This document shows positions 25,183 to 48,562 of a DNA stretch of 64,000 nucleotides, in pieces. The notes beneath the pieces were generated by a model. It did not search any database. It was not told where the DNA came from and was given only the letters and a program-made list of their open reading frames with translations. The position numbers and the translations under genes are program-made. Source of the stretch: Clostridia bacterium (GTDB lineage: Bacteria; Bacillota; Clostridia; Oscillospirales; CAG-272); contig JAFTBN010000075.1 in the NCBI GenBank assembly GCA_017455185.1, positions 11,545 through 75,544 of the forward strand, read 5' to 3'. How positions within the stretch are numbered: position 1 is the stretch's first letter; each line of letters opens with the position of its first letter.

Positions 25183-26226
25183 TTAGGAGTTAATGGCCTC
25201 CGCTGCCGAGTTGGATGCTGCGTCGTCAAACAACGCGATGTGCTTCCAGTTGGTGAAGCCTACGCCGAAGCGGCAGTAGCCGTTCCAGATGTAGTTCCGG
25301 GTGTGGTCGTCGATCCAGGACCGGATATCCAGGTTGACGCGGTTGTAGAACATGTTTGCCTGCAGGTTCTCGTTCGCTTCTCTGGACATGACCATGATCT
25401 TGTCGGAGGTGGTTTCCCAGCCATCCAGGACCACGATGGACCACTGGCCGTACTGGACGTTGATGTCGTTGTTGCCCGAACCGATGGTTCTCTCGGATCC
25501 GACGACTTTCTTGACCAGGGATTCCAGGGCGGGACGGTTTGCCGGGATGATGATGACATCCGGGACATAGCCCATGTTGTTGCCGCCTTCATCCTTGAAG
25601 TTCCGCATGCGGTTGGCAAGCAGAGCCAGGGTGGATTCGATGGTGGTAGCCGAAAGCATGGACGTTGCCGAGCCGTTGACGAAATAGTTAGCCTGGGTGC
25701 CGGAGCGGTTGGCAAAGGTGTGCGCCTTGTGGAACAGAGCCTTGCCGTCGCCTACAGTCAGGTCTACCTTGCCCTTGTTGTAGGTGAAGCCGGTCGAGGT
25801 GGCGTTGATCAGCGCCTGCTCCGCGATCTGCTTCTGGGTCAGGTAGTAAGAACGGACGAATTTCTTCGGCTTGTTCTTGATGTCGGCAGAGATACCGATC
25901 TTGGAATCATCAGCCATTTCGCGCGTGATGGTGAATTCCTTCATGAACGCGATGTGCTCGATGGTCTTCTGATAACCGGGATCGATGCTGTCGTTTTCAG
26001 CGCCCTGGCCTTCCTTGGTGGCCTGGAACGGACGGAAGTCGCCCTCACTGATGACGGTTTCCGCATAGCGGTTGGATTTCTCCACGTTGAACAGGAAGCT
26101 CAGAACGTTCTTCTGCTTCTCCATGTAATTGGATTCAGACTCGATCAGAGCCTTGATCGGATGCTCGAATTTCCCGAACATCGGGTCATTCTTGCCTTCC
26201 AGTTTGGAATAGATAATACTTGCCAT
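25183..26226 (-). CDS. Major capsid protein (HK97-fold type)
   Basis: 347 aa with a strong SD (AAGGAGG). It follows the scaffold and decoration-like genes. Length and composition are typical of HK97-like capsid proteins. The call rests mainly on position. Confidence 0.75.
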   Translation of the reverse strand: MASIIYSKLEGKNDPMFGKFEHPIKALIESESNYMEKQKNVLSFLFNVEKSNRYAETVISEGDFRPFQATKEGQGAENDSIDPGYQKTIEHIAFMKEFTITREMADDSKIGISADIKNKPKKFVRSYYLTQKQIAEQALINATSTGFTYNKGKVDLTVGDGKALFHKAHTFANRSGTQANYFVNGSATSMLSATTIESTLALLANRMRNFKDEGGNNMGYVPDVIIIPANRPALESLVKKVVGSERTIGSGNNDINVQYGQWSIVVLDGWETTSDKIMVMSREANENLQANMFYNRVNLDIRSWIDDHTRNYIWNGYCRFGVGFTNWKHIALFDDAASNSAAEAINS

Positions 26227-27440: not shown

Positions 27441-27475
27441 CGTGTGCATCTCCTTTTCGTTTTTTGGTGGTCGCC

Positions 27476-27607
27476 TTATTTACCGGTTCTCAAATCGTTC
27501 CCACGTTTGACATCGGCCTTCGGCTGCTCTGTGGTTCTCGGAGCCTTAATGATTCCGCCGGCGTTCGTCTGAAAGCGCTGTCCGCTCTTGCTTACGTTCT
27601 TGCTCAT
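27476..27607 (-). CDS. Small basic protein (43 aa, below the track cutoff)
   Basis: ATG at 27607 follows AAGGAGGTAAGAAG. Translates as MSKNVSKSGQRFQTNAGGIIKAPRTTEQPKADVKRGNDLRTGK. Confidence 0.5.
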   Translation of the reverse strand: MSKNVSKSGQRFQTNAGGIIKAPRTTEQPKADVKRGNDLRTGK

Positions 27608-27635
27608 CTTCTTACCTCCTTGTTCCTAATAAAAT

Positions 27636-27670
27636 AGAGCCACTACTCCCGTTTCCGGTTTTGTGGCTCT
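27636..27670 (-). terminator. Hairpin followed by a U-rich run (partial terminator or processing site)
   Basis: Minus strand reads AGAGCCAC, a 19-nt loop, GTGGCTCT, then AUUUUAUU. It sits between the Zn-ribbon gene and the 43-aa ORF. Confidence 0.4.
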
Positions 27671-27706
27671 TCCTCAATGGGCAAATGGCCTGTGATTCTC
27701 AGATAT

Positions 27707-27883
27707 TCATTTAACGGTTTGCACGGACCATAGTTTGCCGCATCGTTTGCATTTGAAGGTCAGACCCTTGACTTCGGAATCCCGGAGCAGCCCAACAAAC
27801 CGCACCTTTTCTCCGCACCTCGGGCAGGCCAAACGGGTAATGTCTCCCCGTTCTGTTTCTAAAATTCGCAAAGCCATTTTCAT
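27707..27883 (-). CDS. Small zinc-ribbon protein
   Basis: CPRCGEKV...CKRCGKLW. The track start (27931) lies inside the promoter; ATG 27883 or 27877 next to GAGGTG is preferred. Confidence 0.6.
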   Translation of the reverse strand: MKMALRILETERGDITRLACPRCGEKVRFVGLLRDSEVKGLTFKCKRCGKLWSVQTVK

Positions 27884-27895
27884 CACCTCGTCTAT

Positions 27896-27934
27896 ATTAT
27901 AAACTACAAAAAAGCGGTTTTGGTATCCCATTTC
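27896..27934 (-). promoter_or_regulatory. Late promoter copy 3 (head-gene unit)
   Basis: The same 21-nt box (27934-27914), 12 nt, then TATAAT (27901-27896). A ~47-bp stretch is identical to copy 1. Confidence 0.7.
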
Positions 27935-27952
27935 GCGGCTTTTTGAACTTTT

Positions 27953-30900
27953 TTACGATTTTTTTCGCAAAATTCTGTTGCCCTTGACCGTGAATCCGCA
28001 CCGCTCCGCGATGGCTGCTTTCTCTGCCTGCGTGACCGGCAGAGACATGATGTATTTCAGCAGCATGGTCGTCGCGCTTTCCTCGCTGACCGGGAGCCCG
28101 GAGAGCGTGTAACCCTTGACGGCCATCACGTACACCGCCTCCTGTTTGCTCAGTCCGCTGGTGGTCAGATACTTGTACACATTCTTTTTCTTGGTGCCCG
28201 AAATGGCATTGCCCTTCTTGTCCTTGTCCGTCCCGATCTCGTTCAGCCCGGCCAGGACGGTCGCAAACTTTCCGATGTCTTTCCGGAAGAAGGTCAGAAG
28301 CGTGTTGTTGGTGGTCTTTGTCTTCGTCACCTCGTCCTTTGCCATCATAAAATACGCCGTGTTGACCGACTTGATGGCTTTGGCCTGGTCTTCCTCACTC
28401 AGCTTCTTGAATACACGGTCGTTCAGCATGCTCTCGATCACCGGGTTCGCCTTGGAATAGAGATACTTGAACTGCTTCTTCTGGTTGGCCGTGAGCTTGT
28501 AGGATTCTGTCTTCGTCTCTCCGTTCGCGTCCGTGTACGTGTACGACAGCGTGTTTCCGACCGCCTTGGGAAGGACGTCATAGCCCTGCGTGTAGAGATT
28601 CAGCAGGACGTCGCGCGCTTCCTTGCTCATCGTTCCCGTGTTGTCTTTCGTATACAGCTTGAGCAGATACTCGGCCATATCCGTGTTTCCGTGATTCATA
28701 TACTCCGAAAGGTCGGTCCGGTAGTCCGTCGCATAGAAGAACGAGTCCACCGCATAGCCGGCTTCGGGCGCGAACCGCCTCATCATGCCGGTTACCGTGT
28801 TCATGATGTTCCGCACCGGGATTCCGGTCAGCTCTCCGGCCGTGTAGACCGAGCGCCGCAGAACGGATCCGAATTCGTACCGCTCCACCGGCTGGCCGGA
28901 TGCGGCCTTGCCGATCAGCGACACTATGTTCTTGGAATCCATGAGGAAGTCGTTCACGGTATCGTACACAAATCCGGATACGCCGTAGCCCTTGGTGAAG
29001 TAACTGGCGATCTGGTTCATGCCGGGCATCATTCCGATGGTCGTTACGGCAATGTCGGTCAGGTAATCCTCGGCAAAGGAAATCTCGTTCCCTTCCTCGT
29101 CTTCCCTGCGCTTCTTCTTGAACAACCAGGAAATGAATTGCCCGATCATACAGTACATGGCGTTCGCAATCAGGATGGCCGAAATGGCCCTTCCCAGCTT
29201 CTTGGCGGCGTCTGCCTTCGCTTTAGCATTCTTGGTCTGCACCGCATACGAAAGCTCGCCTGCGGCTTCCACAAGCCGGGAATACTGCTTCAGCGGCGCC
29301 GACGTGAACATGGAGAACACCTTGGCCGCTTCGTGCGTGGAGCGCATCATCGCGGACCGTTCCGTGTTGGAATAGTTCGGCTGTGTCTGCCGGATCACCT
29401 GCTCGAGCAGTTTTCCTGCTTCCTTCATGTTTTCTTCGGTTCCGAACACATAGCCCTTCTCTTCCTGCACCTGCGCCTGGCTGGCATTCCACAGGACGCC
29501 GATGGTCAGACGGTCTGTCCATTGAATCGGCTTGGTTGTCGCGTCCCCGATCTTGCCCACTTTGTCAATCACGCCTTCCGCCTTCACCACCACCTGGTCA
29601 TGGTTCCGGGTGAATGCATACGGGCAGTATTTGTCCATTGCCTTGAAATCGATCTTGCGGAAGAATCCGCGAAGCATAGCCTTCGGGCTCAGAACAATGG
29701 CAGCGGTCGGGAAGGATGCGGTCTGCGACAGAATCACCTTCAGGTTGGCGCCCAGCTGATACTTGGCATATCCTCCGCGGAGCGCCCCGAAGAGGTTGAA
29801 ATCCTCGTTCGGCATGACGACGCCCTGGATGTCGGAGAACAGTTTCTGCAGGTAGGCCGAAGCGCCTTTCCAGATGTTTTCGTCCACAAACTTGCGCACC
29901 GTCCGGACGTCGGTCTTTTCCCCGATGTTCTTGTTGTACACCCGGTCGAAGGTCTGCATAGGCTGTGCCAGGTTCGCGTAGACGGACATCTGCTTTGCAT
30001 GCGTCTGCACCATATCGTACACGTTCCCAATGTGCAGCTCGGTAGCCGCCTTCGGCTTCGTATCCTTGTTGAAGGAGAAGTTATTCAGTGCGGCCACATC
30101 CTTCAGGAAGGAGCGCACGTCCATGGTGGACCGTGCGATCGTCGTCCGGTCGCGGACAATCGGGAAATAGAATTCATCCAGAACGTTGGTGTATCCGAGG
30201 AAATTCAGATCGGCTTCGGTCTTCGCGTTTTTGGACTCCACGTTGAAGAAATTCTCCACCAGTTTGATGAATTCCTTGTCTTCCTTGGTCAGGCTCGATT
30301 CAATCGTCTTCCGGAACCATACGGCGTTGTCCTCATAATCCTCGTCCGTCAGGTTGGTCTCCATCGTGCCTTTTACGTGGTGCGTGTTGCCGTCCTTGTC
30401 CTCGTAGGAGAATCCGGAGCAGGCAAGGCCCTTCTGCGCCTGTGCGCGCTTGGTGGTCTCATACAGGGCAATGGCCTGATTCAGCGTCAGGGTCTCGCCA
30501 TGGAAGTCAATGGTCGCGCTTGCAAGCCGCTTCTGATACCCTTTGTTCTTCTTGAAGAATTCCTCGAACGGAAGCATGAACTGCACGCGCTGGTATTCCG
30601 CCGCGGTTTCGCCCTGCAGGATTTCGTTGTACATCCTGGTCAGGAACCCTTTCGGGTCATAACGTTCCAGCATCCGGATGACCACGCGAGGCTCTACCGT
30701 GTAATTGAACCACTTCTGGATAGTTTGCGTGAGCTTGACGAAATGCTTGATCTTCTTGAATTCCTTGGACATCAGGAATTTCATCTCGTCCTCGGCCAGC
30801 TGCCTGGTTGTGTAGCGCTTCCCTTCCAGGAAGGCCGCGTCGTAGTTACGGAACAGCGCTTCCGCGGAACCGAGAATCACCTCCGCCGCCTTCAGCTCCT

Positions 30901-33900
30901 CGTAGGACAGAGGAAGCGGAACGCCGCTTGCGGTTTCCTTTTTGGCGTTTTTGATGACCTCAAACGCGCCCAGCACGTTCGGGTCCAGCTCGCCCTTTCC
31001 GTCCTCGCTCGTCTCTGCCAGCCAGTCCATCAGAGGCTGGTTCTTGGCATTGTAGAACTTTTCATAAGTCAGCAGGATGTTCCGGGAATTGGCCTTACGG
31101 AGATTTCCGCGAAGCACCAGCTTGCCCAATTCCTTTTCCCACTTTTCCAGGATCGGATTGGAAAGAACGGTAGAGGAAACGTATTTCCGGATGGCTCCGT
31201 CCTTCAGTTTCCGCGCCAGGTCAACGACCCGGTTTTCCACCTGGTTCTTCTTGTAGGAATTCTTCAGTTTGTCCAGAAGCTTCTGCTTTTGCTCCTCGAA
31301 TACGCCTTTGAGCGCATCGATCCGCTTTTCATAGCCTTTCCTCTGCTCTCCGAGTTTGCGCTCATACTGACCGCGCACACGTTCGACCGCCTTGCCTTCC
31401 TTGGAGATGGTCCCGAATTCATCGTAGGCGCGAAGCAGGTCTTTGGCAATACCCTGGCGGTAGTCCTTCAGAGCCTGCTCGCTTCCGAATTCGCGGAGCT
31501 TGATCTTCGCCGCCTTTTCATCCAGCATGCTTTTGCAATGGTCATAATGCTGGAGCAGCTGATGAAAGATTTGCTGCGCAGGCGCGTCCACATCCACGTC
31601 TCCCAGGTAGATACCCTGCGACCGCATTTCCATAGCGATGACGTCCGGGTCCATGCCTCGGGTGCCTTTGGGTGCCGCCCACTGCATCCAGATTTCGTTG
31701 GCCTTGTCGTCGAAAACATACTTGGCTTCGCTCTTGATCTGGTCCGTGATATGGATCCCGTGGCGGTATTGATTCATTGCGTCAATGAATTGGGCCGCCA
31801 CAGCGGACGCGTCGGTTCCCACGACGATTTCGTGCATGATCACGTTGTCGATCAGGTAATCCGCGATTCGCAGAGCCGGGTTGAATCTCTCGCCTGCCGG
31901 CGCGCTGTTCAGCATCTCAAAGATCTGGTTGATGGCCTGCTTTCTGCTCTTGCCTATGAGCTTTGGCTTGAAGATGTTGCTGTCCCATTCGTCTTCGAAA
32001 TACGAGCGCTCGCTTTCGGTATACTCGATGTTCTCCATAATCCGGTTGACGATTTCTTCGGCTTCCTTTTTAGTGTAGCGCTTGAATTCGTAGCCGTCAG
32101 AAAGAGAATTTCTGCCTTCCTCGGATGAAGAATTTTCATTTTTTTCTTCAATGGGGGTTGACAAGTCATCGTTCTGTGCTATACTGTTACCAGAATTAGT
32201 GCGTGGCACAGCGATTTTAACCACCGTTGGGTGAGTGTTGTGCTGCGCACTATTTTTGTTCTCCTGTAATGAAAACGTGTATACGTATCCATCTTTGTCA
32301 TTATACTTTTTCTCAACATTTGCCAAAACATCAAAAAGCTTGTTATCTATCCAAACTTGTTTAACAAAGTAATCAAAATAATCTGCAGGTGTATGTTTTT
32401 TGTGGTTTGGAGAACTGCTTTGATACTTGGAATTTTCAATCAGTTCAAAGATATTTCCGTCTGCGCCTACTTTGACCAGCGCTTTTTTTCCTGCCTTTGA
32501 ACTATTATCATCGCCAAATACAGGCTTCCTAATACTGGTTTTATCCATTGTTGCATAATAGGTATGCCCATTTCTAACAAACTTTGCCGTTCTTCCAACA
32601 TAGTCATTTTTTAGATAATCCAAATATTTCGCAATTCTCTGCTTTTGTGGCAAATTTAAGATAGTTTGGCTTGTTTCATAAACCTCAATATCATCCGCAT
32701 CATAGCCAATAAGGCTATACCTTCCCTCTTCATGGAACATAGCCACATCAGACAGCTGCTTTCCATTCGACCGATAGTAATTGCGGATGTCATCCAGCAC
32801 GGAATCGAAGTTCCCGTCATAGCGGTAGTTTGTCCGGCTGTCATCGTCAAACGCAATAGTCAGTTTCCCGGAGATCTGGCTTAAAGCATCGCGGATTGTC
32901 TCCATCTGGTCATCGGTTAAACTATCCACCGCTTCGAAGGAAGGCATGTCTATAATGCTCGGCATATTCTTTGAACCGTTGAAATTTACACGGATATTGC
33001 CCTGGTTAATGTACGCATGCGTTGCGTCAGATCTTTCGGTAAAGCTCGGCTTGTCCTTTACTGCCAAAATGATGCTGTCATGCCACATATCCGGGCGATT
33101 CGGATTCATGCCCTTCGTCATAACAGAAGAAAAATCAAGCATTTTGCCGTCCTTTATAATGTAGGCGGCTTTTTTGATGTCATCTGTTGTGCCGAATTTT
33201 TTTACGGCCAGATCGTCAATATAATCAGGCAAAGAATAGCGAATGTCATCGTTTGCGGATTTTGTGACAACAGCACTGGTTTTACCAAAGAATGTAACGG
33301 CCTCAACGTCATACCCTTCGCCAAGCGCGTCCTTCAGATACGCGACAAGCTCGCTCTTTTTAAAGCCTTTTTGGTAAGAGCCACTACCTGAAATAAACAC
33401 CTCAAGGTTATCCTTATCCAGAATGACTTTGGAAGACGCATTCATTACATCTTCGCCGCGCACATTGACAAAAATTCTTCCACCGGGTGCGAGAAGTTCT
33501 CCCATTCTTGCAACAAGCGAGTCCCGGAGATCCTGTGGAAGAACATTCAATACGGCATTGCTGATTATGACGTCGTACTGGCCGGAGATTTTGGTGTAAT
33601 CTCTGTAATCCGGTTCATGCCTTTCGCCAGGATACGGCTCGACGTCTTCCACATCAAACCCGTATTTGTCTTTCCCAAGCTCGGTTCCATATCCAAGACC
33701 GGAAGATGCGTCAAGGATTTTTCCTTCAAACCCTTCGTCTTTCAAGAACGAGTAAATCTTATCGTACGATGCAACCGTCACCTTTACGGACGTCGGATTC
33801 TTCTCGGAAGATTCATCTGCAGACACATCCCACAGATCCGGATGCTGCTCTTTTACCTCTTCGAATGTCTGGCTTCTCTTCCATCCGCCGGTCGGCACAA

Positions 33901-36900
33901 CAGGATCTACCGGAGCCAAAGAATACCTTCCGTCTTCTGCAACAATAGGAGTCTTTGGCATTTCATCCCGAATATGATTGATTGCGTCCACCATCTCAGC
34001 AAGCATGCCGGTCGAAGAATCATCCGCCAGGTCGGCCGAAAGATTATCCAGCGTTTCCAACTCCTTGCGCATCATCCGCTCAATGTATGTCCCTGTGTCC
34101 ACCTGCTCGACTTGACCATCCTGCCCAATAACCGGAACCGTTTCTGGGATCACCAGCTGCACCTTTTTGTGCGGAGCATAGTGCCCTTCGCTGTCATAGA
34201 GCGAGAAATCGGCAAGCAGTTTGTAATAATTCGGATGGTTTGAGAAAGCCGCGTAAGCAACAGTCCAGCCTTTTTCCGCGAGCTCTGCCTTGTACATATC
34301 TGCGGCAAGCTTGGGGATGTCATCATACTTATAGGTCTTCCCGTTGAATTCGGTTGTTTCCTTTTTGTGTGTCTCCGTGCTTGCATTGTACCCGAATTTC
34401 TTTTCCGCGGAAGCAAGATACTTTCCGAAGGTAATGTGCTTTGTTTCTCCGCTTGCATCTTTCGCCTCGTTTAATCCACGGTAATTCTTCGCAAATCTCG
34501 CGCCCGGATACCGCTTCTCCGGATTCTCCGTATTATCATGGAATCCGATGATCAACTGCACCCGCGGATCATCCAGCAGTTTTTCGATATGCTTATCCGA
34601 GTACCCGATGCAGATGGTCCCCACGCTCTTGGAATACAGTTTGTCCATGGCAATCATGAACGCCTCGTCCGGGTTGATTCCTTCCACCGTATCAAACAGA
34701 AGTTCGCCGTTCTCCCCGAGCCCGGCATTTTCCAACGTCCTGGCATAATCAATCTCCCCGTCCGCCGTGCGGTATACATGCACCTTCGGGATCAGGGATG
34801 CATTGATTTTTGCACCGCTCAGACCGAGGATCTTCAGCTCCGCCGGAACCTTGGTGTAGGCGTGAATGTAGTAACCTTTAGCCGCCGCGTCCGCATACAT
34901 CTGGACCATATCCATAAGCAGATACATCTGCAGGTCACTGTTGGACTGGTTCCGGATACCTCCGGCATTCCGCACGGTTCCGGCTTTGAATCCTTTGGTC
35001 AGAATGTCTCCCAGATAGATTACAGGTCTTTGCTTGCTCTTGTACCCACTGACGCCTCCCTGACGATTGAACAGCGAGTACAGCATAGGATGTACACCGG
35101 CAACGTTCTGTGTCACATAGGACGAATACAGCATGTCGCTGTCAATGTATTTGCGCGATTTCGGCTCAAAGGCAAGCGCTTTCAAAAGGGCCAGATTGGT
35201 CGGAACGTTTCCTTTCAGGGATGCGGAAAAGGCCTGCGGCGTTGCCTCCTTGATCAAAGGACGCACCGTCTTGCTGCTCTTGTTGCTTTTCTCAATCTCC
35301 CGGTTTGTGATTTCCATCAGGGCTTCATAGAATGCATTTGACTGCTCTGCGCTCATCTCTACCGGTTTCAGATTGTATTTGTCGGTAGTGATATCCCGGC
35401 CGAATTTGCCGAACGTCATCTCTACGCCCTTCTCTGCCATCTTCCGGGAAATCTCGTCCAATGTGGAATTCCATCCGATTTTGGCGCCGTCTCCGTTCAG
35501 GAATTTTTTAATGATAGCTCCTTCCCGTTGCCGCGCCTGCTCTACATAGCAAATGGCGCAAGGAATTTCATACCCGTGCGTTTTCAGAATCCTGTACAGT
35601 GCTTCCTTTTCCTGCTTCCCGATGACGTCGGTCTTCATCTGCGTTTTGAGTTCTTTGCGTACGATTGCGTCAATGGCCTCAAACAGCGGAACACCCTTTT
35701 TGCACATGGTGGAAAGCTCGATGTTGTACTTGTATCCGCTTTGTTCCTTAAAGACCGAGAAGTTCCCGTCCCGGCCTTTTTTCTCGTTCCATTCCTTGAG
35801 GAATTTGGAATCCATAATCGCCGTTACATCCCGCCAGATCTTCGTAAACCGATCCAGCGCGGCATTAATGCCTTCCTTGCTCTGCATGGCGGACTTTTCG
35901 TCATAATTCTTGTCGATATCCTGACGATGCTTTTGGTCATATTGAAAATTGTTCCGCCCCGTTTCTCCGTACATCGCTTGTCTGCGATTCAATGCCATCT
36001 CAAAGGCATTGCTTCCCTGATTGTACGCAGACAGCCGCTGGAACGCCTGCTTGAATGCATACGCATAGGCTTCTGCAGCAGTTTTCGCCTGAGTAAAACC
36101 GAGCTTGTTGCCAAGTCTGCGCAAGAATGACAGGATCCTCGACTTCAGCGTCGCATCCTCCTGCAGGATTTCCGTCCATAGATCGTCATTCATCCCGAGT
36201 TCGCCGGCATACGCTGCCTGAATCTCGTCTTGAATGATGGCCTCGAGTTCATCGCCACTCTTTTTTGAGTCTTTATAATAGTCCGTATACAGCTCACGGA
36301 TTGCGTTTACGCGTTCTTCCCCGAGCGCCTTCTCCGCGAGCTCTACCATCATAGACTTGCCTTTGGAGGAAAGATGGTTGTATACCCAGTGCCCCGTTTC
36401 ATGCGCAAGCGTAGTGAGCAATCCTTCAGAAACACTTGCGGAAGGATTAACGTACACCGTATTGTGCATGTTGTACCGCCCGGTCGAAATGATTATGTGG
36501 CCGTCCTTGTCTCTTTTATTTGCCGTCAGAATCTTGCGACTGAATACAATGTTCAAACCGGTTTTAGCCGAAACCTTTGCAAAAATGGCAGTCTTGTCCG
36601 GGCTGACATTGTTTTCCAATGCCTGCATAACGGTCCTACGCACGCTGCGCTTGACCGATTCGCTGAGTTTGTCATAATTCGGAACGTATTCCCTGGCCTT
36701 CTGTTCTGCCTCTTCCCGAACCGTGTTCTGCCTCTGCTCTTCTGCGCGGAGGCTTTCGTTCGTCTTTTCCCGAAGCAGCTGATTGACTTCCTTCGACGTC
36801 ATGACGCGCGTAACGGACCCAGATTCCTTGTTCACGATGCGGTACTGGTTGCCCTGTTTTACGACAATGTACCCGTCCCCGATGTCATAAGCGCCGTCTT

Positions 36901-38488
36901 TGTTGGTTCCGAATGCCTTGGGTGCCGGCTTGACTTCGCCCTGCGCGGCCTGCTTTGCGCTCTGTGCGCTCTGCATAGCGGACATGACTTTGTCATGATT
37001 CCGGGCAAACGCTTCGCTGACTTCCACCGAGGATGCTTTCTTCCAGTTATCCACGCCGATCAGTCTGCCGATTTCCTCTTTTTGCTGTTCGGATGCGGTT
37101 TCAACAAACTGCTGCAGTTCGTCCGCCGTGATATCGCCGGGATGCTCAGCGGCAAACTGCACCCATGCGTCCGTCTGCATGGTGAGTTTCCCGGTAAAGG
37201 ACAAAATCGCCAGGCCCTGGAGGACGTGGTTATGCATGAGAGCGCTGCGGACCTGCTGGACGTACGGCTTGCCGGAGTCGGCCATAGCCGTTACGCCTTT
37301 GCGGATATCGTCTGCCGTAATCGTGATCTTGTTTCCCTTGTCATCCGTCAGGAAGGAGGAAATCTGCTGTGCAATCGCTTCCGGATTCTGCAGAATGTTG
37401 ATGGCCTCGCGCTGAAGCAGCGGATTGACCAGCGCTCCCACGTTAATCTGCATCAGATTTCCAAGAAGCATCTTCTGCCTGGGAGTCGTAACCACGTTCC
37501 CATTCTTCGCAATGGATTCCTTCAGCTGGTTATAAGTGTCCTGCAGAGTGTCAACGACTTCCTTGCTGACGCCGACCTGCTCTTGATTCTCCAGGATGCT
37601 CCGGGCGGTCTCAAGAATCGAGTTTACACTTCCGTTCTTGACGGCCTGGCTTCCAAAATACACGCTTCGCGCGGAAGAAATCTGGCTTCCTGTCGCGCCC
37701 ATCATGACACCGGAAAGACCGCCTACCAGCGCCTGATAGCCTACGTCCTTCCAGTCAACCTTCGCTTCGGGATCTACGCCTGTCAGCCTTCCCCACGCAG
37801 GTTCCAGAAGAGCGGATACGCCCTCTTCGAATGCTTCTCCCAAAAAGTCTCCGCCAAGGCGCTTAACCACTGCCCATGCGGTAGACTTGGAGATGGCCTT
37901 TGTTGCGTCATTTGCAAACTGCTTGGATACAGTGGACAAAACCCGACCGGAACCCCAGCCGGCAAAATCGCCCAGCATTTCCGTCCCGGCTTCCGTCAGA
38001 CCGGACAGATAACCATAGCCCATTTCTTTCCAGCCCAGTTCTCCGGTTTTCTTCACTGCCTCGCTTACGCCGGAGCCATATGCGGAGACCCCGAGTGCGG
38101 TCAGGGAGGCGGCCTGAATAGCCGCCTGTGACACTCCGCCTACCGCGTTTCCGATTCCGCCGGTCGCCCAAGCAACCACGAGAGAAGGCAAAGAGTTTCC
38201 AATGCCTGACGCCACATCTCCGGCAATCTTCCAGCCTTTGGAAGGGTTGAATTCCCTTGTGGCCTTCTCGTAATCGAACCAGTCGGTCGTGAATTTACGT
38301 TCTGCGTAATTCAGCGCATCCTCGTTATTGAAGATCTTTCCGGCCAGGAAAGCAGGAAGGCCGGTAACAGCATCGGCCGCTCCTTCTATGGCACGGATAA
38401 AGCCGTTACCCAGCTGCTGGCCGAGATAATCGAGCCCGTACCCTACGTTATGTTCCCCTTCTTCAAGAGTGATATCTGTAAATTTCAT
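27953..38488 (-). CDS. Giant multidomain (polyvalent-type) virion protein, 3,511 aa
   Basis: Single uninterrupted ORF. Gly/Ala-rich hydrophobic N-terminus. HExxH metallopeptidase motif LAHETGHWVYNH (codons at 36389-36403). Class I SAM-methyltransferase motif I ILDASSGLGYG (33685-33717) with DVIISNAVLNVL and GGRIFVNV. Remaining regions are unassigned. It occupies the MuF/minor-head-protein slot after the portal. Confidence 0.85.
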   Translation of the reverse strand: MKFTDITLEEGEHNVGYGLDYLGQQLGNGFIRAIEGAADAVTGLPAFLAGKIFNNEDALNYAERKFTTDWFDYEKATREFNPSKGWKIAGDVASGIGNSLPSLVVAWATGGIGNAVGGVSQAAIQAASLTALGVSAYGSGVSEAVKKTGELGWKEMGYGYLSGLTEAGTEMLGDFAGWGSGRVLSTVSKQFANDATKAISKSTAWAVVKRLGGDFLGEAFEEGVSALLEPAWGRLTGVDPEAKVDWKDVGYQALVGGLSGVMMGATGSQISSARSVYFGSQAVKNGSVNSILETARSILENQEQVGVSKEVVDTLQDTYNQLKESIAKNGNVVTTPRQKMLLGNLMQINVGALVNPLLQREAINILQNPEAIAQQISSFLTDDKGNKITITADDIRKGVTAMADSGKPYVQQVRSALMHNHVLQGLAILSFTGKLTMQTDAWVQFAAEHPGDITADELQQFVETASEQQKEEIGRLIGVDNWKKASSVEVSEAFARNHDKVMSAMQSAQSAKQAAQGEVKPAPKAFGTNKDGAYDIGDGYIVVKQGNQYRIVNKESGSVTRVMTSKEVNQLLREKTNESLRAEEQRQNTVREEAEQKAREYVPNYDKLSESVKRSVRRTVMQALENNVSPDKTAIFAKVSAKTGLNIVFSRKILTANKRDKDGHIIISTGRYNMHNTVYVNPSASVSEGLLTTLAHETGHWVYNHLSSKGKSMMVELAEKALGEERVNAIRELYTDYYKDSKKSGDELEAIIQDEIQAAYAGELGMNDDLWTEILQEDATLKSRILSFLRRLGNKLGFTQAKTAAEAYAYAFKQAFQRLSAYNQGSNAFEMALNRRQAMYGETGRNNFQYDQKHRQDIDKNYDEKSAMQSKEGINAALDRFTKIWRDVTAIMDSKFLKEWNEKKGRDGNFSVFKEQSGYKYNIELSTMCKKGVPLFEAIDAIVRKELKTQMKTDVIGKQEKEALYRILKTHGYEIPCAICYVEQARQREGAIIKKFLNGDGAKIGWNSTLDEISRKMAEKGVEMTFGKFGRDITTDKYNLKPVEMSAEQSNAFYEALMEITNREIEKSNKSSKTVRPLIKEATPQAFSASLKGNVPTNLALLKALAFEPKSRKYIDSDMLYSSYVTQNVAGVHPMLYSLFNRQGGVSGYKSKQRPVIYLGDILTKGFKAGTVRNAGGIRNQSNSDLQMYLLMDMVQMYADAAAKGYYIHAYTKVPAELKILGLSGAKINASLIPKVHVYRTADGEIDYARTLENAGLGENGELLFDTVEGINPDEAFMIAMDKLYSKSVGTICIGYSDKHIEKLLDDPRVQLIIGFHDNTENPEKRYPGARFAKNYRGLNEAKDASGETKHITFGKYLASAEKKFGYNASTETHKKETTEFNGKTYKYDDIPKLAADMYKAELAEKGWTVAYAAFSNHPNYYKLLADFSLYDSEGHYAPHKKVQLVIPETVPVIGQDGQVEQVDTGTYIERMMRKELETLDNLSADLADDSSTGMLAEMVDAINHIRDEMPKTPIVAEDGRYSLAPVDPVVPTGGWKRSQTFEEVKEQHPDLWDVSADESSEKNPTSVKVTVASYDKIYSFLKDEGFEGKILDASSGLGYGTELGKDKYGFDVEDVEPYPGERHEPDYRDYTKISGQYDVIISNAVLNVLPQDLRDSLVARMGELLAPGGRIFVNVRGEDVMNASSKVILDKDNLEVFISGSGSYQKGFKKSELVAYLKDALGEGYDVEAVTFFGKTSAVVTKSANDDIRYSLPDYIDDLAVKKFGTTDDIKKAAYIIKDGKMLDFSSVMTKGMNPNRPDMWHDSIILAVKDKPSFTERSDATHAYINQGNIRVNFNGSKNMPSIIDMPSFEAVDSLTDDQMETIRDALSQISGKLTIAFDDDSRTNYRYDGNFDSVLDDIRNYYRSNGKQLSDVAMFHEEGRYSLIGYDADDIEVYETSQTILNLPQKQRIAKYLDYLKNDYVGRTAKFVRNGHTYYATMDKTSIRKPVFGDDNSSKAGKKALVKVGADGNIFELIENSKYQSSSPNHKKHTPADYFDYFVKQVWIDNKLFDVLANVEKKYNDKDGYVYTFSLQENKNSAQHNTHPTVVKIAVPRTNSGNSIAQNDDLSTPIEEKNENSSSEEGRNSLSDGYEFKRYTKKEAEEIVNRIMENIEYTESERSYFEDEWDSNIFKPKLIGKSRKQAINQIFEMLNSAPAGERFNPALRIADYLIDNVIMHEIVVGTDASAVAAQFIDAMNQYRHGIHITDQIKSEAKYVFDDKANEIWMQWAAPKGTRGMDPDVIAMEMRSQGIYLGDVDVDAPAQQIFHQLLQHYDHCKSMLDEKAAKIKLREFGSEQALKDYRQGIAKDLLRAYDEFGTISKEGKAVERVRGQYERKLGEQRKGYEKRIDALKGVFEEQKQKLLDKLKNSYKKNQVENRVVDLARKLKDGAIRKYVSSTVLSNPILEKWEKELGKLVLRGNLRKANSRNILLTYEKFYNAKNQPLMDWLAETSEDGKGELDPNVLGAFEVIKNAKKETASGVPLPLSYEELKAAEVILGSAEALFRNYDAAFLEGKRYTTRQLAEDEMKFLMSKEFKKIKHFVKLTQTIQKWFNYTVEPRVVIRMLERYDPKGFLTRMYNEILQGETAAEYQRVQFMLPFEEFFKKNKGYQKRLASATIDFHGETLTLNQAIALYETTKRAQAQKGLACSGFSYEDKDGNTHHVKGTMETNLTDEDYEDNAVWFRKTIESSLTKEDKEFIKLVENFFNVESKNAKTEADLNFLGYTNVLDEFYFPIVRDRTTIARSTMDVRSFLKDVAALNNFSFNKDTKPKAATELHIGNVYDMVQTHAKQMSVYANLAQPMQTFDRVYNKNIGEKTDVRTVRKFVDENIWKGASAYLQKLFSDIQGVVMPNEDFNLFGALRGGYAKYQLGANLKVILSQTASFPTAAIVLSPKAMLRGFFRKIDFKAMDKYCPYAFTRNHDQVVVKAEGVIDKVGKIGDATTKPIQWTDRLTIGVLWNASQAQVQEEKGYVFGTEENMKEAGKLLEQVIRQTQPNYSNTERSAMMRSTHEAAKVFSMFTSAPLKQYSRLVEAAGELSYAVQTKNAKAKADAAKKLGRAISAILIANAMYCMIGQFISWLFKKKRREDEEGNEISFAEDYLTDIAVTTIGMMPGMNQIASYFTKGYGVSGFVYDTVNDFLMDSKNIVSLIGKAASGQPVERYEFGSVLRRSVYTAGELTGIPVRNIMNTVTGMMRRFAPEAGYAVDSFFYATDYRTDLSEYMNHGNTDMAEYLLKLYTKDNTGTMSKEARDVLLNLYTQGYDVLPKAVGNTLSYTYTDANGETKTESYKLTANQKKQFKYLYSKANPVIESMLNDRVFKKLSEEDQAKAIKSVNTAYFMMAKDEVTKTKTTNNTLLTFFRKDIGKFATVLAGLNEIGTDKDKKGNAISGTKKKNVYKYLTTSGLSKQEAVYVMAVKGYTLSGLPVSEESATTMLLKYIMSLPVTQAEKAAIAERCGFTVKGNRILRKKS

Positions 38489-38502: not shown

Positions 38503-38546
38503 AACTTGCTTGTAACTTGCTTGCAACTTGATTGTAACTTGTCACG
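38503..38546 (-). repeat. 11-bp tandem repeat (about 3.5 copies) just upstream of the giant-gene SD
   Basis: Plus strand reads AACTTGCTTGT AACTTGCTTGC AACTTGATTGT AACTTGTCACG. It fills the short spacer between the 752-aa gene stop and the giant gene. Confidence 0.75.
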
Positions 38547-40800
38547 TCAGTATCCCGCCGCGTTTTTCGACCAGCATCCACATGTCACCGTCACAATAAT
38601 ACATGTACCCATCTCTTTCTACCAGGAGATTCTCCCTGAGCCCCAAAATATCCGTGAGCATTTCTTTCATGTTTTTGTTCAAAGTCTTCAGGTTATAATC
38701 AATACCGTCAACCTTCAGCCCATAATTGGATCCCGTATTGTTATACCCAGTCACCAGCTCAATGCTATGCCGTCTCGGGCTCGTAACCTTATACACAGAC
38801 TTCATGTCTGCTATCGCCTGATGGTATTGGGTTGCTGACAGTTTTCCTTCCGTCAGCATATCTTTCAGGGTCTGCTGAATATCCTTGTAATTCGTGCTTG
38901 TGTATTGCGTTGCATACACGTGGGCCACTTTCCCGTTCACTGCACGGTATGTTTCCAGATTGATGGAACCGTTGTTGTAATCGGAGTCAAGGGTTGCAAT
39001 GATATCAAGCAGCGGCTGGTTGATATCTCCGTACTGATCGATGCTGGCAAGGACTGTATCGTAATTGCTGACATACGTATTCATAGCTTCCTGGTACTGC
39101 TTGTTATACTGCTTGAGAGAATTGCCCTGTTCCTGGGTAATCTGTCCGCCTGTCACAAGCGCGTCAATCTCAGAATCTGTCAACATTTCACCGTCTTGGT
39201 ATCCGGCTACCACATCCTTGTAATATTCGTTCTGCGCGTTCAGTGTCTCCTGATCGTATTTCAGCTTTTGCGCCTCAAGGTCAGCTGCATACTTGGCCTG
39301 CGCTTCTTCTTGCGCCTGCTGATATGCGGCCATACCCTGCTTGTAAGAGATGCCGGCGGATGCAATGCCCTGTTCCTTCGCAAGCTCTGCGTTCGCGTTT
39401 GCCGCGCTCTTCTGCAGGTCTGCCTGAAGCATGCTGTCCCGGTAGGTCATATCCGCGTTCTGTTCAGCCGCAAAGCGGTTCGCTCCTGCCGAGTACATTT
39501 CGCCCCGGCTGGCTGCATATGCCGCCTGATCCGCATAGTCGGAATACCCGGACATAGCCAGCCCATTCCGGCCCAGTGATTCGCCACGGCTTCCATACCC
39601 TGCACGATTGAGCGCATACGCATTCTGCGCGTCGTTGACAGCTCGCTCGTATTCGGATGCGGCCGCCTGCCTGGATGCGTCAGCCTGTGCCTGTGCGGCA
39701 TCTTTTGCAATGCCGTACTGCTCCTGCGCTGCCTTCTGGGAGATTTCATACTCACGGTTTGCGTACTCTTCCTGCTGGCGCCGGATATCCGCCAGCCAGT
39801 CCTCATACGTCATAACCGGAGGCGTGCCATCTGTGGTTCCTTCCGTGGTTCCGGTTCCGGTATCTGTACCTGTGCCTGTATCGCCCTGGTCGCTTCCGCC
39901 TGTTTCGCCCGTGCCCATGGGGGGCTGGTCATCCGGCGTTACCATCACGTAATCCCCCTCACCGTCCGGTACGAATTCTTTGCCGGAATCGCCCGTTGAC
40001 ACCTTTACCACCGGCTCGTTCTGTCGGCTGTAAACTGTGGGCGCTTTGAGTTGCGTGCCCATAGTGATCTTGTCCTTCGGCGGTTCCATCACGTAATCAC
40101 CGTTACCGTCCGGAATGAATTCTTTGCTGGTGTCGCCTCCGGTCTGGTCGCTTCCGCCGGTCTCGCCCGTGCCAATGGGGGGCTTCTTCAGGTTGCGGAC
40201 ATAGTCGCCTTCCCCGTCCGGATCAAACGCTCTTTCCTGTACTTCCTTTACCACCGGCGCGCCCTGCCGGCTGTAAACCGTGGGCGTTTTGGGTTGCGTG
40301 CCCAAAGTGATCTGCGTATAACCGCCTGTGTTGCTTTCGCCTCCGGTCTGGTCGCTTCCGCCGGTCTCGCCTTCGGTCTGGCCTTGATAGGTTGGCGGTA
40401 AAATACGCGTCGGATCTGCCGCTTCCGTTTCGGTCAGCCCCTGTTCCAAGGCCTGTCCTGCATAGCTGGTCGTTTGTTCAGGAGGAGAATCTGTCACAGG
40501 CGGAACATCCGTCAGAGGAGGATAGCCAGGAGGTGGTTCAATTTCGGTCTGCTCGGGCCCGTAGACCTCTCCGTCAAGATATTTGGATGCCTCTGCGTAA
40601 TTCCAGTCCGGCGTAGGCGTCCAGGTGGATTTGTTCGAAGGCGGCGCGTTCTTCTTTCTCTCTTCTTCCTCTTTCCTCTTTCTCTCTTGTTCCTCTTTTT
40701 TCTTTCTCTCTTCTTCTGCAATGATGTCCAGATACTCCTCCGCGTCGCTCAGAATCTGGCTCTCTTTGGTCTTCTTGGTATCTAAAGGTTTCTTAGGCAT
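38542..40800 (-). CDS. Repeat-rich virion-associated protein (752 aa)
   Basis: Lys/Glu-rich N-terminus. Three ~65-aa tandem repeats (GTGETGGSDQTGG...PDGEGDYV...PTVYSRQ). Q/A-rich coiled-coil middle. It overlaps the portal stop by 8 nt. Confidence 0.7.
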   Translation of the reverse strand: MPKKPLDTKKTKESQILSDAEEYLDIIAEEERKKKEEQERKRKEEEERKKNAPPSNKSTWTPTPDWNYAEASKYLDGEVYGPEQTEIEPPPGYPPLTDVPPVTDSPPEQTTSYAGQALEQGLTETEAADPTRILPPTYQGQTEGETGGSDQTGGESNTGGYTQITLGTQPKTPTVYSRQGAPVVKEVQERAFDPDGEGDYVRNLKKPPIGTGETGGSDQTGGDTSKEFIPDGNGDYVMEPPKDKITMGTQLKAPTVYSRQNEPVVKVSTGDSGKEFVPDGEGDYVMVTPDDQPPMGTGETGGSDQGDTGTGTDTGTGTTEGTTDGTPPVMTYEDWLADIRRQQEEYANREYEISQKAAQEQYGIAKDAAQAQADASRQAAASEYERAVNDAQNAYALNRAGYGSRGESLGRNGLAMSGYSDYADQAAYAASRGEMYSAGANRFAAEQNADMTYRDSMLQADLQKSAANANAELAKEQGIASAGISYKQGMAAYQQAQEEAQAKYAADLEAQKLKYDQETLNAQNEYYKDVVAGYQDGEMLTDSEIDALVTGGQITQEQGNSLKQYNKQYQEAMNTYVSNYDTVLASIDQYGDINQPLLDIIATLDSDYNNGSINLETYRAVNGKVAHVYATQYTSTNYKDIQQTLKDMLTEGKLSATQYHQAIADMKSVYKVTSPRRHSIELVTGYNNTGSNYGLKVDGIDYNLKTLNKNMKEMLTDILGLRENLLVERDGYMYYCDGDMWMLVEKRGGILT

Positions 40801-42745
40801 TTGCGTTTCCTCCTCTCAAGGTATCCTGCACGTACTGCTCGTAAGCCTTGCGGCTGTTGACCTCGTCCTGCAGGCCTGCGATCTGATTCTGCAGCTGCGC
40901 CATCTCGTTCAGGCGTGCGATCTCGGTCCGGATGCGCTCCACGTTGTCGCGTGCGTACGGATAGTGCGCTTTTTCCATATTTTGCCAGTATATGAGCTTT
41001 GTCTGCGGCAGAGCCGGGTCTCCGTAAGCACCAGCCTGGAAGTTTTCCTTGTTCTGCTGCCAGAGCCATGCACGGTCCAGTTCTTCCTCGGGGTTGCTGG
41101 AGCACGAGAACGTGTAGTCGTCCGCATAGTAATACTCGCCGTTTTCGTCTCGCTCGATGAAATCGTAGCGGTTGAAGATGCAGTTTTGCAGATTGCCTTC
41201 CGCGTCCCGGTAGGCCGCCGGTCTCGGTTCGTCAGCGTAAGCGAGATAATACTGAAAGATGATGCGGTCTATCTCCGAATACGCGAAATTCTTCATGACG
41301 CGCTTGGACTGCAAACGCCCGGAAGACTGCTGAACCTGGACCTGCTTGGCAACACCGGACTGCGCCGTGCTGTCCGAGAGGCCTCTGTAGCTGTCCGTGA
41401 TGCCGAGGATCCGCTTTGCGTGCTCATACACGCGCTCGGACTGCTCCACGTCCTGCCCGATCTGGGCCTGCAGGTCCAGCTTGGCAAACAGGTTGAAATT
41501 GTTTGGCCGTGCCCGGAAGACCCTCTCATACAGGCTGTCATCCAGCTGGTCGACGAAATCGTCCGGCACGATTGGGAACACGCCCGATTTGAGAATCTTT
41601 TCCAGGATCCTGGACTCGATCTTGTTGATCTCCTGCTGCTGGTCCCGGATGTATTCGCAGTCACTCTGCCCCAGCAAGGACTCTTCCTGGCTGGTGTTCT
41701 TGCGGATGACGACCGGGAACGCGGTAATCTGATACCACGGAATGCGCGTCGGCTCGGTCTTGGGAACCTCGACGTCTACCATCATAGGCAGGGCTACGCC
41801 GTTGATCAGGTCAATGGCGGTAGAACCGTCCGGATTGGTCACCGGCGCCTGCTGGGTCTCCATCACCACCTGCCCGTTCTCAATCACCGGAGACAGGCGA
41901 GGCAGCACGGACCCGTCCGCCCGGACGATATCGTGGTCCAGCTCCTCGAATTCTTCATCTTGCACCTCGAAATAAGGCATTTCGCACGTGCACAGGCGCT
42001 CCGGCCTTCCACATTTGACGCACACCTTCTTTTTGCGGTTGTAATAGTCTTCTATCCACTGGATTTCCTGATCGCCGGACCAGATGTACTGGCAGACCTT
42101 GTCCTTGTCGTCCTTGTAATAGCACACGTACAGGGTCGCGGTCTTGTCGTCCGTGCTGTCTTCGCTCTCCAGATCGTCCAGGATGGACACGTCCACGTCA
42201 TACTTGCGCAGGATGTCTTCCTTCGTGGTCTCGAAGAGGATAAACAGGTACTCCATGTCTTCGATGGCGTAGATGTTCGGCTGGCCAACGAACCGATGCG
42301 GCGGCAGGCAGCTGACGCGCACGTCTCCGCTGGTGTTGTGCGTCGTGATGGTCTCATCCCATTCCACAAGCCAAACGGACCCTCCGTAGATCGGGTTGTA
42401 CCGCTCGTCTATATCGTTGAGCGATTCAAACGGCAACCGGTCCCGGTTGGTGTTGAGCATGGTCTCAATGGCCTTGGCGTTGCGCAGATTGCGTTCTGAC
42501 ACCATCTTGGGCTCTACCTTAGGCGACGGGATATACGTTGAGATCTGCGCCTCCACGAACTCGTACGTGATGTTGCGGACCACTTTTGCATCCACAGACG
42601 ACCCGTCTATCTGCTTGGAGCCCTTGTACTGCTCCATCCACTTCTGCAGGGCCAGCCGTGAATTTTCAGACTGCCCCAATGCTTCCTGGTACAGGTCCTG
42701 AAAAAACCGTACCCGTTCTTCCTTGCCGTTTCCTTCTATCTTCAT
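40793..42745 (-). CDS. Portal protein
   Basis: 650 aa, directly downstream of TerL (ATGA overlap). The N-terminal region is typical of portals (QKWMEQYKG...RNITYEFVEAQISTYIP). A CxxC...CxC insert is present. Confidence 0.8.
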   Translation of the reverse strand: MKIEGNGKEERVRFFQDLYQEALGQSENSRLALQKWMEQYKGSKQIDGSSVDAKVVRNITYEFVEAQISTYIPSPKVEPKMVSERNLRNAKAIETMLNTNRDRLPFESLNDIDERYNPIYGGSVWLVEWDETITTHNTSGDVRVSCLPPHRFVGQPNIYAIEDMEYLFILFETTKEDILRKYDVDVSILDDLESEDSTDDKTATLYVCYYKDDKDKVCQYIWSGDQEIQWIEDYYNRKKKVCVKCGRPERLCTCEMPYFEVQDEEFEELDHDIVRADGSVLPRLSPVIENGQVVMETQQAPVTNPDGSTAIDLINGVALPMMVDVEVPKTEPTRIPWYQITAFPVVIRKNTSQEESLLGQSDCEYIRDQQQEINKIESRILEKILKSGVFPIVPDDFVDQLDDSLYERVFRARPNNFNLFAKLDLQAQIGQDVEQSERVYEHAKRILGITDSYRGLSDSTAQSGVAKQVQVQQSSGRLQSKRVMKNFAYSEIDRIIFQYYLAYADEPRPAAYRDAEGNLQNCIFNRYDFIERDENGEYYYADDYTFSCSSNPEEELDRAWLWQQNKENFQAGAYGDPALPQTKLIYWQNMEKAHYPYARDNVERIRTEIARLNEMAQLQNQIAGLQDEVNSRKAYEQYVQDTLRGGNANA

Positions 42746-43011
42746 GCCGGCAATCCTCCCATTATCTTGATAATTGCCTCTCGCTCTGTGTTACTCCGCG
42801 CGTTGCGGTAGTCCTCCAGGCGATCCGGGCTGTAATGTACATATTTAACGGTCTGCTCTTTGGCAGGCGTTATCCAGTAAATGCAGAAATACCGTAAACT
42901 ATCACAATTATGGACAATCACTCCACTATTTACAGAAAAACAGTGCGTGCTATCCACATATAAGTCATATACTTTCTGCTTGTTCCCTCTCCTTATATGG
43001 GTGATATGCAC
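42742..43011 (-). CDS. terL: TerL fragment 4: split-intein C-half (35 aa) fused to the TerL C-terminal 54 aa
   Basis: GTG at 43011 lies 8 nt after AAGGAGG. The piece ends ...VYDLYVDSTHCFSVNSGVIVHN, then Cys+1 (42906-42904), then DSLRYFCIYW (nuclease Asp motif). It ends in an ATGA overlap with the portal start. Confidence 0.8.
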   Translation of the reverse strand: MHITHIRRGNKQKVYDLYVDSTHCFSVNSGVIVHNCDSLRYFCIYWITPAKEQTVKYVHYSPDRLEDYRNARSNTEREAIIKIMGGLPA

Positions 43012-45975: not shown

Positions 45976-46071
45976 ACCTCTCGCGCCGCCAAAGGCCACA
46001 TATTTAGCGGTCGCCGTCATAAACTCCCTTTGTTTGGGCTGTGGCCGGCCCAGCTTAAACGTAACCGTCAT
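45976..46071 (-). CDS. terL: TerL exon 1 (32 aa)
   Basis: ATG at 46071 overlaps the terS stop (ATGA) and follows GAGGAG. MTVTFKLGRPQPKQREFMTATAKYVAFGGARG supplies the first half of Walker A. Confidence 0.7.
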
Positions 46072-48477: not shown

Positions 48478-48497
48478 GTCCCCCGCGGCATTTATAA

Positions 48498-48533: not shown

Positions 48534-48562
48534 TCCGTGCCCGACTCTCTGTTCGTCAAGGC

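Follow-up and report, generated by a model that had tools for sequence, protein, structure and literature searches.

A giant phage protein of the polyvalent type with a conserved frame, exchanged cargo and an uncharacterised central domain

Introduction

Phage-type polyvalent proteins, as described by Iyer et al. in 2017 (PMC5512222), combine a zincin-like hub with unrelated effectors and LPD domains in one very large polypeptide and are encoded by phages with a portal-terminase system. Here we describe a protein of this kind from a 64,000-nucleotide stretch of gut-metagenomic DNA assigned to a Clostridia bacterium (GenBank assembly GCA_017455185.1, contig JAFTBN010000075.1, positions 11,545 to 75,544; the whole stretch is referred to as the window), whose left part is a temperate phage of ~46 kb, present as a prophage and with a head and neck of the short-tailed type. 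The protein, which we call the giant, comprises 3,511 amino acids (aa), and its gene lies among the structural genes of a phage that has a portal-terminase system. Within these 3,511 aa we recognise a predicted zincin-like metallopeptidase, a central region that we name domain D, a predicted class I S-adenosylmethionine (SAM)-dependent methyltransferase, an LPD3 segment and two conserved end modules. We propose, with a probability of roughly 0.6, that the giant is a phage-type polyvalent protein built of a frame and its cargo that is packaged and ejected.

Although the giant shares its general layout with the proteins of Iyer et al., it differs from them in its methylase, theirs being an EcoKI/TaqI-like adenine methylase with an NPP(Y/F) motif and that of the giant belonging, by prediction, to the class I small-molecule/protein type. 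Moreover, none of the Pfam families that go back to that study matches domain D, and the giant possesses a frame of conserved N- and C-terminal modules. The polyvalent protein as such is of a known kind, whereas the frame-plus-cargo organisation and domain D are undescribed in the libraries and papers searched.

Precedents for polyvalent proteins in virions are gp50 of coliphage N4 and the DdrB/Dar proteins of phage P1 (PMC5512222), and the structures of N4 ejection proteins (PMC13434306) belong to the same set of precedents. N4 gp50, a virion RNA polymerase of 3,500 aa in which regions for injection, catalysis and encapsidation are distinguished (PMC5512222, PMC13434306), is a giant, capsid-packaged and ejected podophage protein with an embedded zincin, and it is in these features that the giant would resemble it. 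Unlike gp50, however, the giant has no T7-like RNA polymerase domain detectable by Pfam, PHROG, PDB or fold comparison, similarity of the end modules is unsupported, and blastp and hmmsearch comparisons of the giant with N4 gp50 were negative. In addition, N4 is lytic and needs gp50 for early transcription, whereas the phage analysed here is temperate.

A temperate counterpart is gp47 of the Stx phage phi24B, a polyvalent protein of 2,811 aa that was found in virions by proteomics and is a proposed ejection protein (bioRxiv 10.64898/2026.04.10.717836). Like the giant it is a very large polyvalent protein of a temperate podophage, containing LPD5, LPD1, LPD38 and a metallopeptidase, and it is similar (E 1e-34 to 1e-23) to eight of the domain-D-containing giants of our set, with which it shares cargo domains. 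In contrast to these, gp47 contains neither domain D nor the shared end modules, it has only a weak zincin profile match to the giant itself, its gene is located at the 3' end of the genome, and the host is Gram-negative.

Closer in host range are prophages phi1 and phi4 of Clostridium clostridioforme LM41, which were predicted to be podoviruses from their tail genes and contain an 8-kb LPD3-like open reading frame (ORF) that was read as polyvalent (PMC11318856). They, too, are temperate elements of gut Clostridia, ~41 kb in size, with a giant LPD3-like ORF, and the end-of-module placement of this ORF recurs in three of our loci (L002, L003 and L005); in the LM41 prophages, however, the ORF is at the prophage 3' end and not beside the portal gene, and the likeness is one of description only. 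Finally, the ejection proteins of podophages (T7 gp14/15/16, P22 gp7/16/20, and those of SU10) are internal, largely helical virion proteins that are required as the tail is too short to cross the cell envelope (PMC8954989, PMC9509320). The SU10-like, albeit weakly matching, portal and adaptor of the phage in the window connect it to this group, but the giant has no sequence or fold similarity to the ejection proteins and would join conduit and effectors in one polypeptide.

Results

Homologues place the giant in the polyvalent class

The giant is encoded by a single stop-free ORF on the minus strand that runs from an ATG at position 38488 to the stop codon at 27953-27955, with an alternative GTG start at 38494. 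The identical 3,511-aa protein has been called on two public metagenome contigs, the longer of which is an 86.8-kb scaffold (ENA ERZ28653718), indicating that the uninterrupted 10.5-kb ORF reported in a preliminary description of this DNA is not an artefact of the window. Three homologues of 3,586-4,268 aa (P0012, P0013 and P0014) align to the giant at both ends and in the middle with an overall identity of 45-51%. Rfam searches detected no intron or other RNA within or near the gene, and no tRNA was found there either.

Scanning 14 homologues of the giant against Pfam revealed ART-PolyVal in seven of them (best E 1.9e-26), LPD38 and LPD23 in two each, and PBECR5, KTSC and LPD3 in one each. 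These domain families derive from the set of polyvalent proteins studied in 2017 by Iyer et al. (PMC5512222). As homologues sharing the conserved modules carry these diagnostic domains, we place the giant in the polyvalent class, although its own LPD3 match is 0.8 bits short of the cut-off. The presence of ART-PolyVal, LPD38, LPD23, PBECR5 and LPD3 in the homologues bears out the earlier proposal of a multidomain, polyvalent-type protein in the head gene block.

That most of the giant defies assignment, as stated at the outset, also holds after family searches. No match was obtained for the giant in NCBIfam or among PDB sequences, and PDB sequence and profile searches with the whole giant, domain D, the C-terminal core and the N-terminal module were negative or insignificant. 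Searches of an index of 5.8 billion proteins with three segments of the giant gave 3-8 matches each, a yield limited by the word index. When GenBank phages were searched by megablast and tblastn the N-terminal module and domain D remained unmatched; the sole matches were those of the methyltransferase and those of the C-terminal core to two unannotated faecal phage fragments. The preliminary description overlooked residues ~845-1510, the largest and best-conserved element of the protein, as well as the conserved N- and C-terminal frame with its swappable cargo. The coordinates of all features are compiled in Table 1.

Table 1. Features of the giant and of neighbouring structural genes in the window
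Feature	Residues of the giant	Position in the window	Strand	Basis
Giant ORF, 3,511 aa plus stop	1-3511	27953-38488	minus	ORF call; identical protein on two metagenome contigs
Conserved Gly/Ala-rich N-terminal module	1-330	37499-38488	minus	common to giants with different middle
Zincin-like metallopeptidase (predicted)	~620-830	35999-36631	minus	HExxH 696-700 at 36389-36403; third ligand Glu755 at 36224-36226
Domain D: helical part with three invariant Cys, then alpha/beta part	845-1510	33959-35956	minus	homologue clusters, AlphaFold2
Low-GC3 cargo block (methyltransferase and LPD3)	~1500-2150	32039-33991	minus	G+C content at third codon positions (GC3); missing from P0012
Class I (Rossmann-fold) SAM-dependent methyltransferase (predicted)	1560-1750	33239-33811	minus	sub-threshold profiles, PDB matches
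LPD3	1954-2065	32294-32629	minus	Pfam PF18798, E 9.5e-6, 26.2 bits vs cut-off 27
Conserved, almost wholly alpha-helical C-terminal module	2401-3511	27956-31288	minus	homologue comparison, AlphaFold2
C-terminal core	2661-3260	28709-30508	minus	homologue comparison
Hydrophobic helix	3101-3123	29120-29188	minus	hydrophobicity
Portal protein		40793-42745	minus	phrog_156 E 1.5e-32; SU10_portal weak
752-aa protein, between portal and giant		38542-40800	minus	low-complexity repeats, then Gln/Ala-rich region
Major capsid protein		25183-26226	minus	family annotation
SU10-adaptor-like 309-aa protein		24229-25158	minus	weak match

A conserved frame surrounds exchanged cargo

Comparison of the giant with 163 collected relatives showed that the N-terminal module, the C-terminal core and residues 861-1510 recur, and that the methyltransferase and LPD3 segments are rare. 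Two relatives of 2,070 aa (P0006 and P0007) match residues 9-245 and 2406-3499 of the giant, their middle being unrelated, and the closest full-length relative, P0012 (51% identity), carries a different cargo at the methyltransferase/LPD3 interval. The giant is a conserved frame, formed by residues 1-330 and 2401-3511, around exchanged cargo.

Base composition follows a similar pattern, GC3 being ~0.63 over residues 1-1500, 0.29-0.54 (with one window at 0.61) over residues 1500-2150, where it drops to ~0.3 over LPD3, and ~0.77 over residues 2150-3511. Taking this mosaic together with the lack of the methyltransferase and LPD3 segments in P0012 we conclude that this compositionally foreign block was acquired recently.

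The N-terminal ~300 aa had been characterised as Gly/Ala-rich and hydrophobic. Their Gly/Ala content is indeed elevated (24-33% as compared to 8-22% elsewhere), but no part of them scores as a membrane segment, and the only strongly hydrophobic stretch in the whole giant is the helix formed by residues 3101-3123. Residues E166, E170, E218, E221 and E222 of the N-terminal module are invariant, and two of six members of this module show a weak match (E 2.3e-5) to phrog_2206, the PHROG of the N-terminal region of N4-type virion RNA polymerases.

For the C-terminal 1,111 residues AlphaFold2 yielded a nearly all-helical model with a predicted local distance difference test (pLDDT) score of 76, for which a Foldseek search of the PDB returned no fold neighbour; residues 2663-3242 match one PHROG of unknown function. 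In one locus (L001, 6588-15052) ART-PolyVal and the C-terminal module are encoded by two adjacent genes, of 1,127 aa and 1,683 aa, respectively. We also observed that in L003 (at 15760) and L004 (at 6766) the C-terminal core resumes in another frame past the end of P0005, which could be due to a frameshift or a sequencing error.

Within the cargo block the methyltransferase motifs that had been reported near residue 1590 were located as ILDASSGLGYG at residue 1591, with the GxGxG-type motif GLGYG at 1597, DVIISNAVLNVL at 1639 and GGRIFVNV at 1669. The region ~1590-1680 matches Methyltransf_23 (E 3.1e-5, 24.2 bits vs a cut-off of 27), Methyltransf_12 (E 1.4e-4, below cut-off), Methyltransf_25 and Methyltransf_11, and all ten of its weak PDB matches (E at least 0.03) are class I SAM methyltransferases of the small-molecule/protein type. 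Furthermore, phages of Roseobacter, Microcystis and Mycobacterium encode short stand-alone proteins with 29-35% identity to it, one of them annotated as methyltransferase. Since no (D/N/S)PP(Y/F/W) motif occurs anywhere in the giant, this is not the adenine methylase that is usual in polyvalent proteins, and we assign residues 1560-1750 as a predicted class I SAM methyltransferase that is not of the DNA N6-adenine or N4-cytosine type.

A zincin-like region precedes domain D

The HExxH motif previously noticed near residue 700 lies within LAHETGHWVYNH, which starts at residue 694, with HExxH itself at 696-700. When 15 sequences sharing 9-36% identity were aligned, the sole invariant columns were H696, E697, H700 and E755, and this combination of HExxH with a downstream Glu is the arrangement given for the metallopeptidases of polyvalent proteins (PMC5512222). 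One HExxH motif would be expected in the giant by chance with a frequency of 0.047; as 113 of 153 homologues have the motif upstream of domain D, at a distance of 131-330 residues (mostly 145-225), a chance occurrence can be excluded.

Around HExxH the giant matches Peptidase_M48 with 17.4-18.7 bits (cut-off 20.3), and MPTase-PolyVal, unmatched by the giant itself in the Pfam scan, matches three of the 15 zincin relatives below threshold (best E 5.5e-4). In the family scan of the zincin regions of homologues MPTase-PolyVal, M48 and DUF6782 come first, and M78 and SprT-like are matched once each. Among the PDB profile matches, all with E at least 0.03, several are minigluzincin, WLM, MMP, Ste24 and IrrE, the top-ranked ones being unrelated. 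For both the peptidase and the methyltransferase motifs of the preliminary description the profile matches within the giant remain below the curated cut-offs. The zincin motif is real and conserved, and we predict that it belongs to a metallopeptidase of the gluzincin type.

Domain D is a large family almost wholly outside the annotated collections

Homologues of domain D were collected in an exhaustive HMMER search with residues 801-1560 as query and clustered at 50% identity. A total of 1,410 clusters matched, 293 of them with E <= 1e-30, and the top ~70 matches are 46-62% identical over residues ~845-1510. Nearly all of the homologues are embedded in proteins of 2,500-6,400 aa, usually directly after the zincin. 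No other part of the giant comes close to this level of conservation.

In contrast to the number of clusters, domain D is almost invisible in cultured and annotated collections. As judged by tblastn, neither the 50,697 GenBank phage records nor the PLSDB plasmids contain it. A profile scan located it in two of 185,579 GTDB species genomes (two loci in metagenome-assembled genomes (MAGs); a single-sequence scan found none), and ten IMG/VR contigs carry it, which range from 17 to 48 kb, with six at 41-48 kb. Pfam scans of 12 members and PDB profile searches were empty, and NCBIfam and PHROGs were likewise unmatched.

Twelve sequences with identities down to 22% were compared to identify invariant residues. 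These include Cys929, Lys931, Arg986, Asn1229, Ser1231, Glu1269 and His1317 as well as a motif E-I-x-C-x-x-C containing Glu974, Cys977 and Cys980. Further invariant motifs are Gly1177-x-Arg1179-x-Gln-Ser-x-Ser-Asp1185 (including Gln1181 and Ser1182), Tyr-Thr-Lys1213 (including Thr1212) and N-Y-x-K-L-L-x-D at 1420-1427. An AlphaFold2 model based on 33 sequences (pLDDT 89.5, predicted template modelling score 0.87) consists of a helical N-terminal half, which carries the three Cys residues, followed by an alpha/beta half, in which most of the invariant polar residues appear to be located at or just after predicted parallel strands.

Foldseek comparison of this model with the PDB gave nothing at E <= 0.001, the best match having E 0.3 and a template modelling (TM) score of ~0.1; comparison with BFVD gave a single match, an uncharacterised protein from an uncultured phage. 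Alpha/beta-barrel enzymes recur among the sub-threshold Foldseek matches; with E at least 0.3 and TM ~0.1 they were not counted as evidence. Assignments of domain D as a radical-SAM enzyme, as a tRNA-guanine transglycosylase-like protein or as a polymerase were rejected, each lacking motif or fold support. From the conserved residues and the model we read domain D as a putative metal- or cluster-dependent enzyme that might act on a phosphate-bearing or polymeric substrate such as a nucleic acid, a nucleotide or a cell-wall polymer.

The gene for the giant lies in the head module of a temperate phage

The left end of the phage contains genes for an integrase (795-1835) and a CI/LexA-type repressor (1835-2494), next to which the replication genes are located on the plus strand. 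In the late operon, on the minus strand, the terminase pieces and the portal gene precede the genes for a 752-aa protein and the giant. Two tiny ORFs come next, and these are followed by genes for proteins of 268 aa and 126 aa, the major capsid protein, an adaptor-like protein of 309 aa, a protein of 1,092 aa and the tail fibre. This gene order is in agreement with the position of the giant two genes downstream of the portal that had been reported. Portal and adaptor match podophage SU10 families weakly. Genes for a tail tube, a sheath, a tape measure or a chaperone pair were not found, the stretch between the capsid and tail-fibre genes being free of the first three, so that the initial designation of the phage as tail-tube-less is reasonable.

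The gene order around the giant is the same in L008, an IMG/VR contig of 48 kb, and in L006, a locus in a Candidatus Scatosoma MAG, which are the closest relatives and both show the succession of terminase, portal, small protein, giant and scaffold-like protein. The 752-aa protein is weakly conserved in L008 and has no family matches. Its N-terminal half is a long low-complexity region with repeat units GTGETGGSDQTGG, F-x-PDG-x-GDYV and PTVYSRQ-x-x-PVVK, and its second half, which is Gln/Ala-rich, would be helical judging from its composition. This protein may be a second internal virion protein.

Several observations concern the surroundings of these genes. Compared to the intact 455-aa large terminase subunit (TerL) of L008, the TerL gene in the window is split into four collinear pieces on the minus strand (46068-45976, 45677-45426, 44661-43807 and 42918-42745), and two of the three gaps contain ORFs for HNH endonucleases (44783-45430 and 42965-43624). 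This looks like the result of multiple homing-endonuclease introns or inteins; no group I intron was detected in region 42745-46068 by Rfam at the gathering threshold. Between the stop codon of the giant and the next sizeable gene there are ~500 bp (27450-27952), in which public gene calls place ORFs of 74 aa and 43 aa. Downstream of the tail fibre, in a region with small genes (16001-18000), the G+C content dips to 0.46, as compared to 0.52-0.58 nearby, and this may be another recently acquired segment. Past the terminase end of the late operon Rfam family RF02975, the DUF3800-XI RNA motif, is matched at 56865-56911 on the minus strand with 51.4 bits (E 1.7e-8), and region 46800-64000 contains several large ORFs (~340-960 aa) with almost no phage-family matches; it may be host DNA or another element.

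Discussion

Our analysis suggests that the giant is a phage-type polyvalent protein that is probably packed into the capsid and injected together with the DNA. In such a scenario the giant would be expressed late and enter the procapsid via its frame modules, and it would be expelled through the portal and the short tail ahead of or together with the DNA. The helical frame might help to bridge the Gram-positive envelope, a task for which other phages have separate ejection proteins or a tape measure. The polypeptide may be cleaved by its zincin into working units, and domain D, the methyltransferase and LPD3 could then act in the newly infected cell.

Several findings weigh against this proposal. 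Packaging, ejection, self-processing and a role in anti-defence are deduced from the position of the gene and from the precedents N4 gp50 and phi24B gp47, and the gene is found at the far end of the structural module, away from the portal gene, in L002, L003 and L005, so that position alone is not diagnostic. Pfam scans of the whole giant and of 400-aa windows detected no Phage_Mu_F/SPP1 gp7 head-targeting domain, and the giant matches no known ejection protein or tape measure, either by sequence (Pfam, PHROGs, PDB) or by fold. The hydrophobic helix 3101-3123 is merely amphipathic in distant homologues. An hhalign comparison of the N-terminal module with eight N4-like N-termini gave E 0.11 and a probability of 0.5%, leaving the link to N4 unconfirmed. 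All Pfam matches within the giant itself are below the gathering thresholds, and for domain D it is the conservation pattern and the predicted structure that make it appear enzyme-like.

Alternatively, the giant might be a late cytoplasmic multi-enzyme that stays unpackaged and functions in assembly, in DNA or cell-wall modification, or in lysis. Such a function would be compatible with the lack of a detectable capsid-targeting domain, the variable gene position among relatives and the occurrence of methyltransferase homologues as stand-alone genes in unrelated phages. We nevertheless consider it unlikely, as homologues of the giant carry domains that were defined from invasion-phase polyvalent proteins, polyvalent giants of a podophage have been detected in virions, no role in the cytoplasm is obvious for the conserved helical end modules, and a 10.5-kb gene of a ~46-kb genome is placed between the portal and the scaffold/capsid genes.

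Somewhat less probable still is an essentially structural giant that forms an internal core or an ejectosome or determines length, with zincin, methyltransferase and domain D being vestigial or architectural. Here, the zinc ligands would not be expected to be invariant across 9-36% identity, and the invariant positions of domain D go beyond a hydrophobic core, comprising polar and charged residues and cysteines at strand ends. Moreover, turnover of cargo combined with strong conservation of domain D is expected of effectors, not of spacers. What speaks for a structural role is that the module is devoid of a tape measure and of a recognisable ejection protein, that helices make up almost the whole of the C-terminal 1,100 aa, as in known ejection proteins, and that every enzyme profile match is sub-threshold.

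The similarity in size (3,511 vs 3,500 aa) and the podophage setting raise the question of whether the giant is analogous in function to N4's virion RNA polymerase, with domain D being an unrecognised nucleic-acid polymerase that is injected to start transcription or replication. As in N4 gp50 the zincin is found beside a large central domain (PMC5512222), the zincin profile weakly aligns to residues 2186-2288 of N4 gp50, and the N-terminal module has its weak match to phrog_2206. We regard this analogy as very improbable since sequence or fold similarity to any polymerase is lacking, domain D contains neither the NADFDGD motif of multisubunit RNA polymerases nor DxDxD, and the N-terminal modules align only with the hhalign E value of 0.11; in addition, the phage is temperate, having a CI-type repressor and an integrase, so that the host RNA polymerase should suffice. 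An artefactual ORF, due for instance to chimeric assembly or spurious read-through, might be suspected from its origin in a metagenome scaffold and from the composition mosaic within the gene. This explanation is contradicted by the stop-free 10.5 kb, the identical protein on two contigs, the alignment of P0012, P0013 and P0014 over ends and middle, and the same arrangement in the 48-kb viral contig L008, and its probability is negligible.

Returning to the giant as a packaged polyvalent protein, we tentatively suggest, at somewhat less than even odds, that domain D founds an uncharacterised enzyme family with a fold outside the PDB. Together with the zincin it could then form the catalytic centre conserved throughout a very large clade, comprising at least 1,400 clusters at 50% identity, of giant proteins that phages, most of them uncultured, inject. 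The tandem might serve to penetrate the envelope, or it might attack a polymer or nucleotide of the host early on; either would be a step of infection undescribed for any model phage.

Giant polyvalent proteins make up a fifth of the genome in many temperate podophages of gut Clostridia, and their functions are putative. In the locus described here a conserved delivery frame is set apart from exchangeable cargo, so that the family can serve in the search for new effector domains and, in principle, as a means of bringing foreign cargo into capsids. Domain D, being far better conserved than the rest, outside Pfam, NCBIfam and PHROGs, and having a confident model that lacks a solved relative, offers a concrete and expressible target for a new activity at phage entry.

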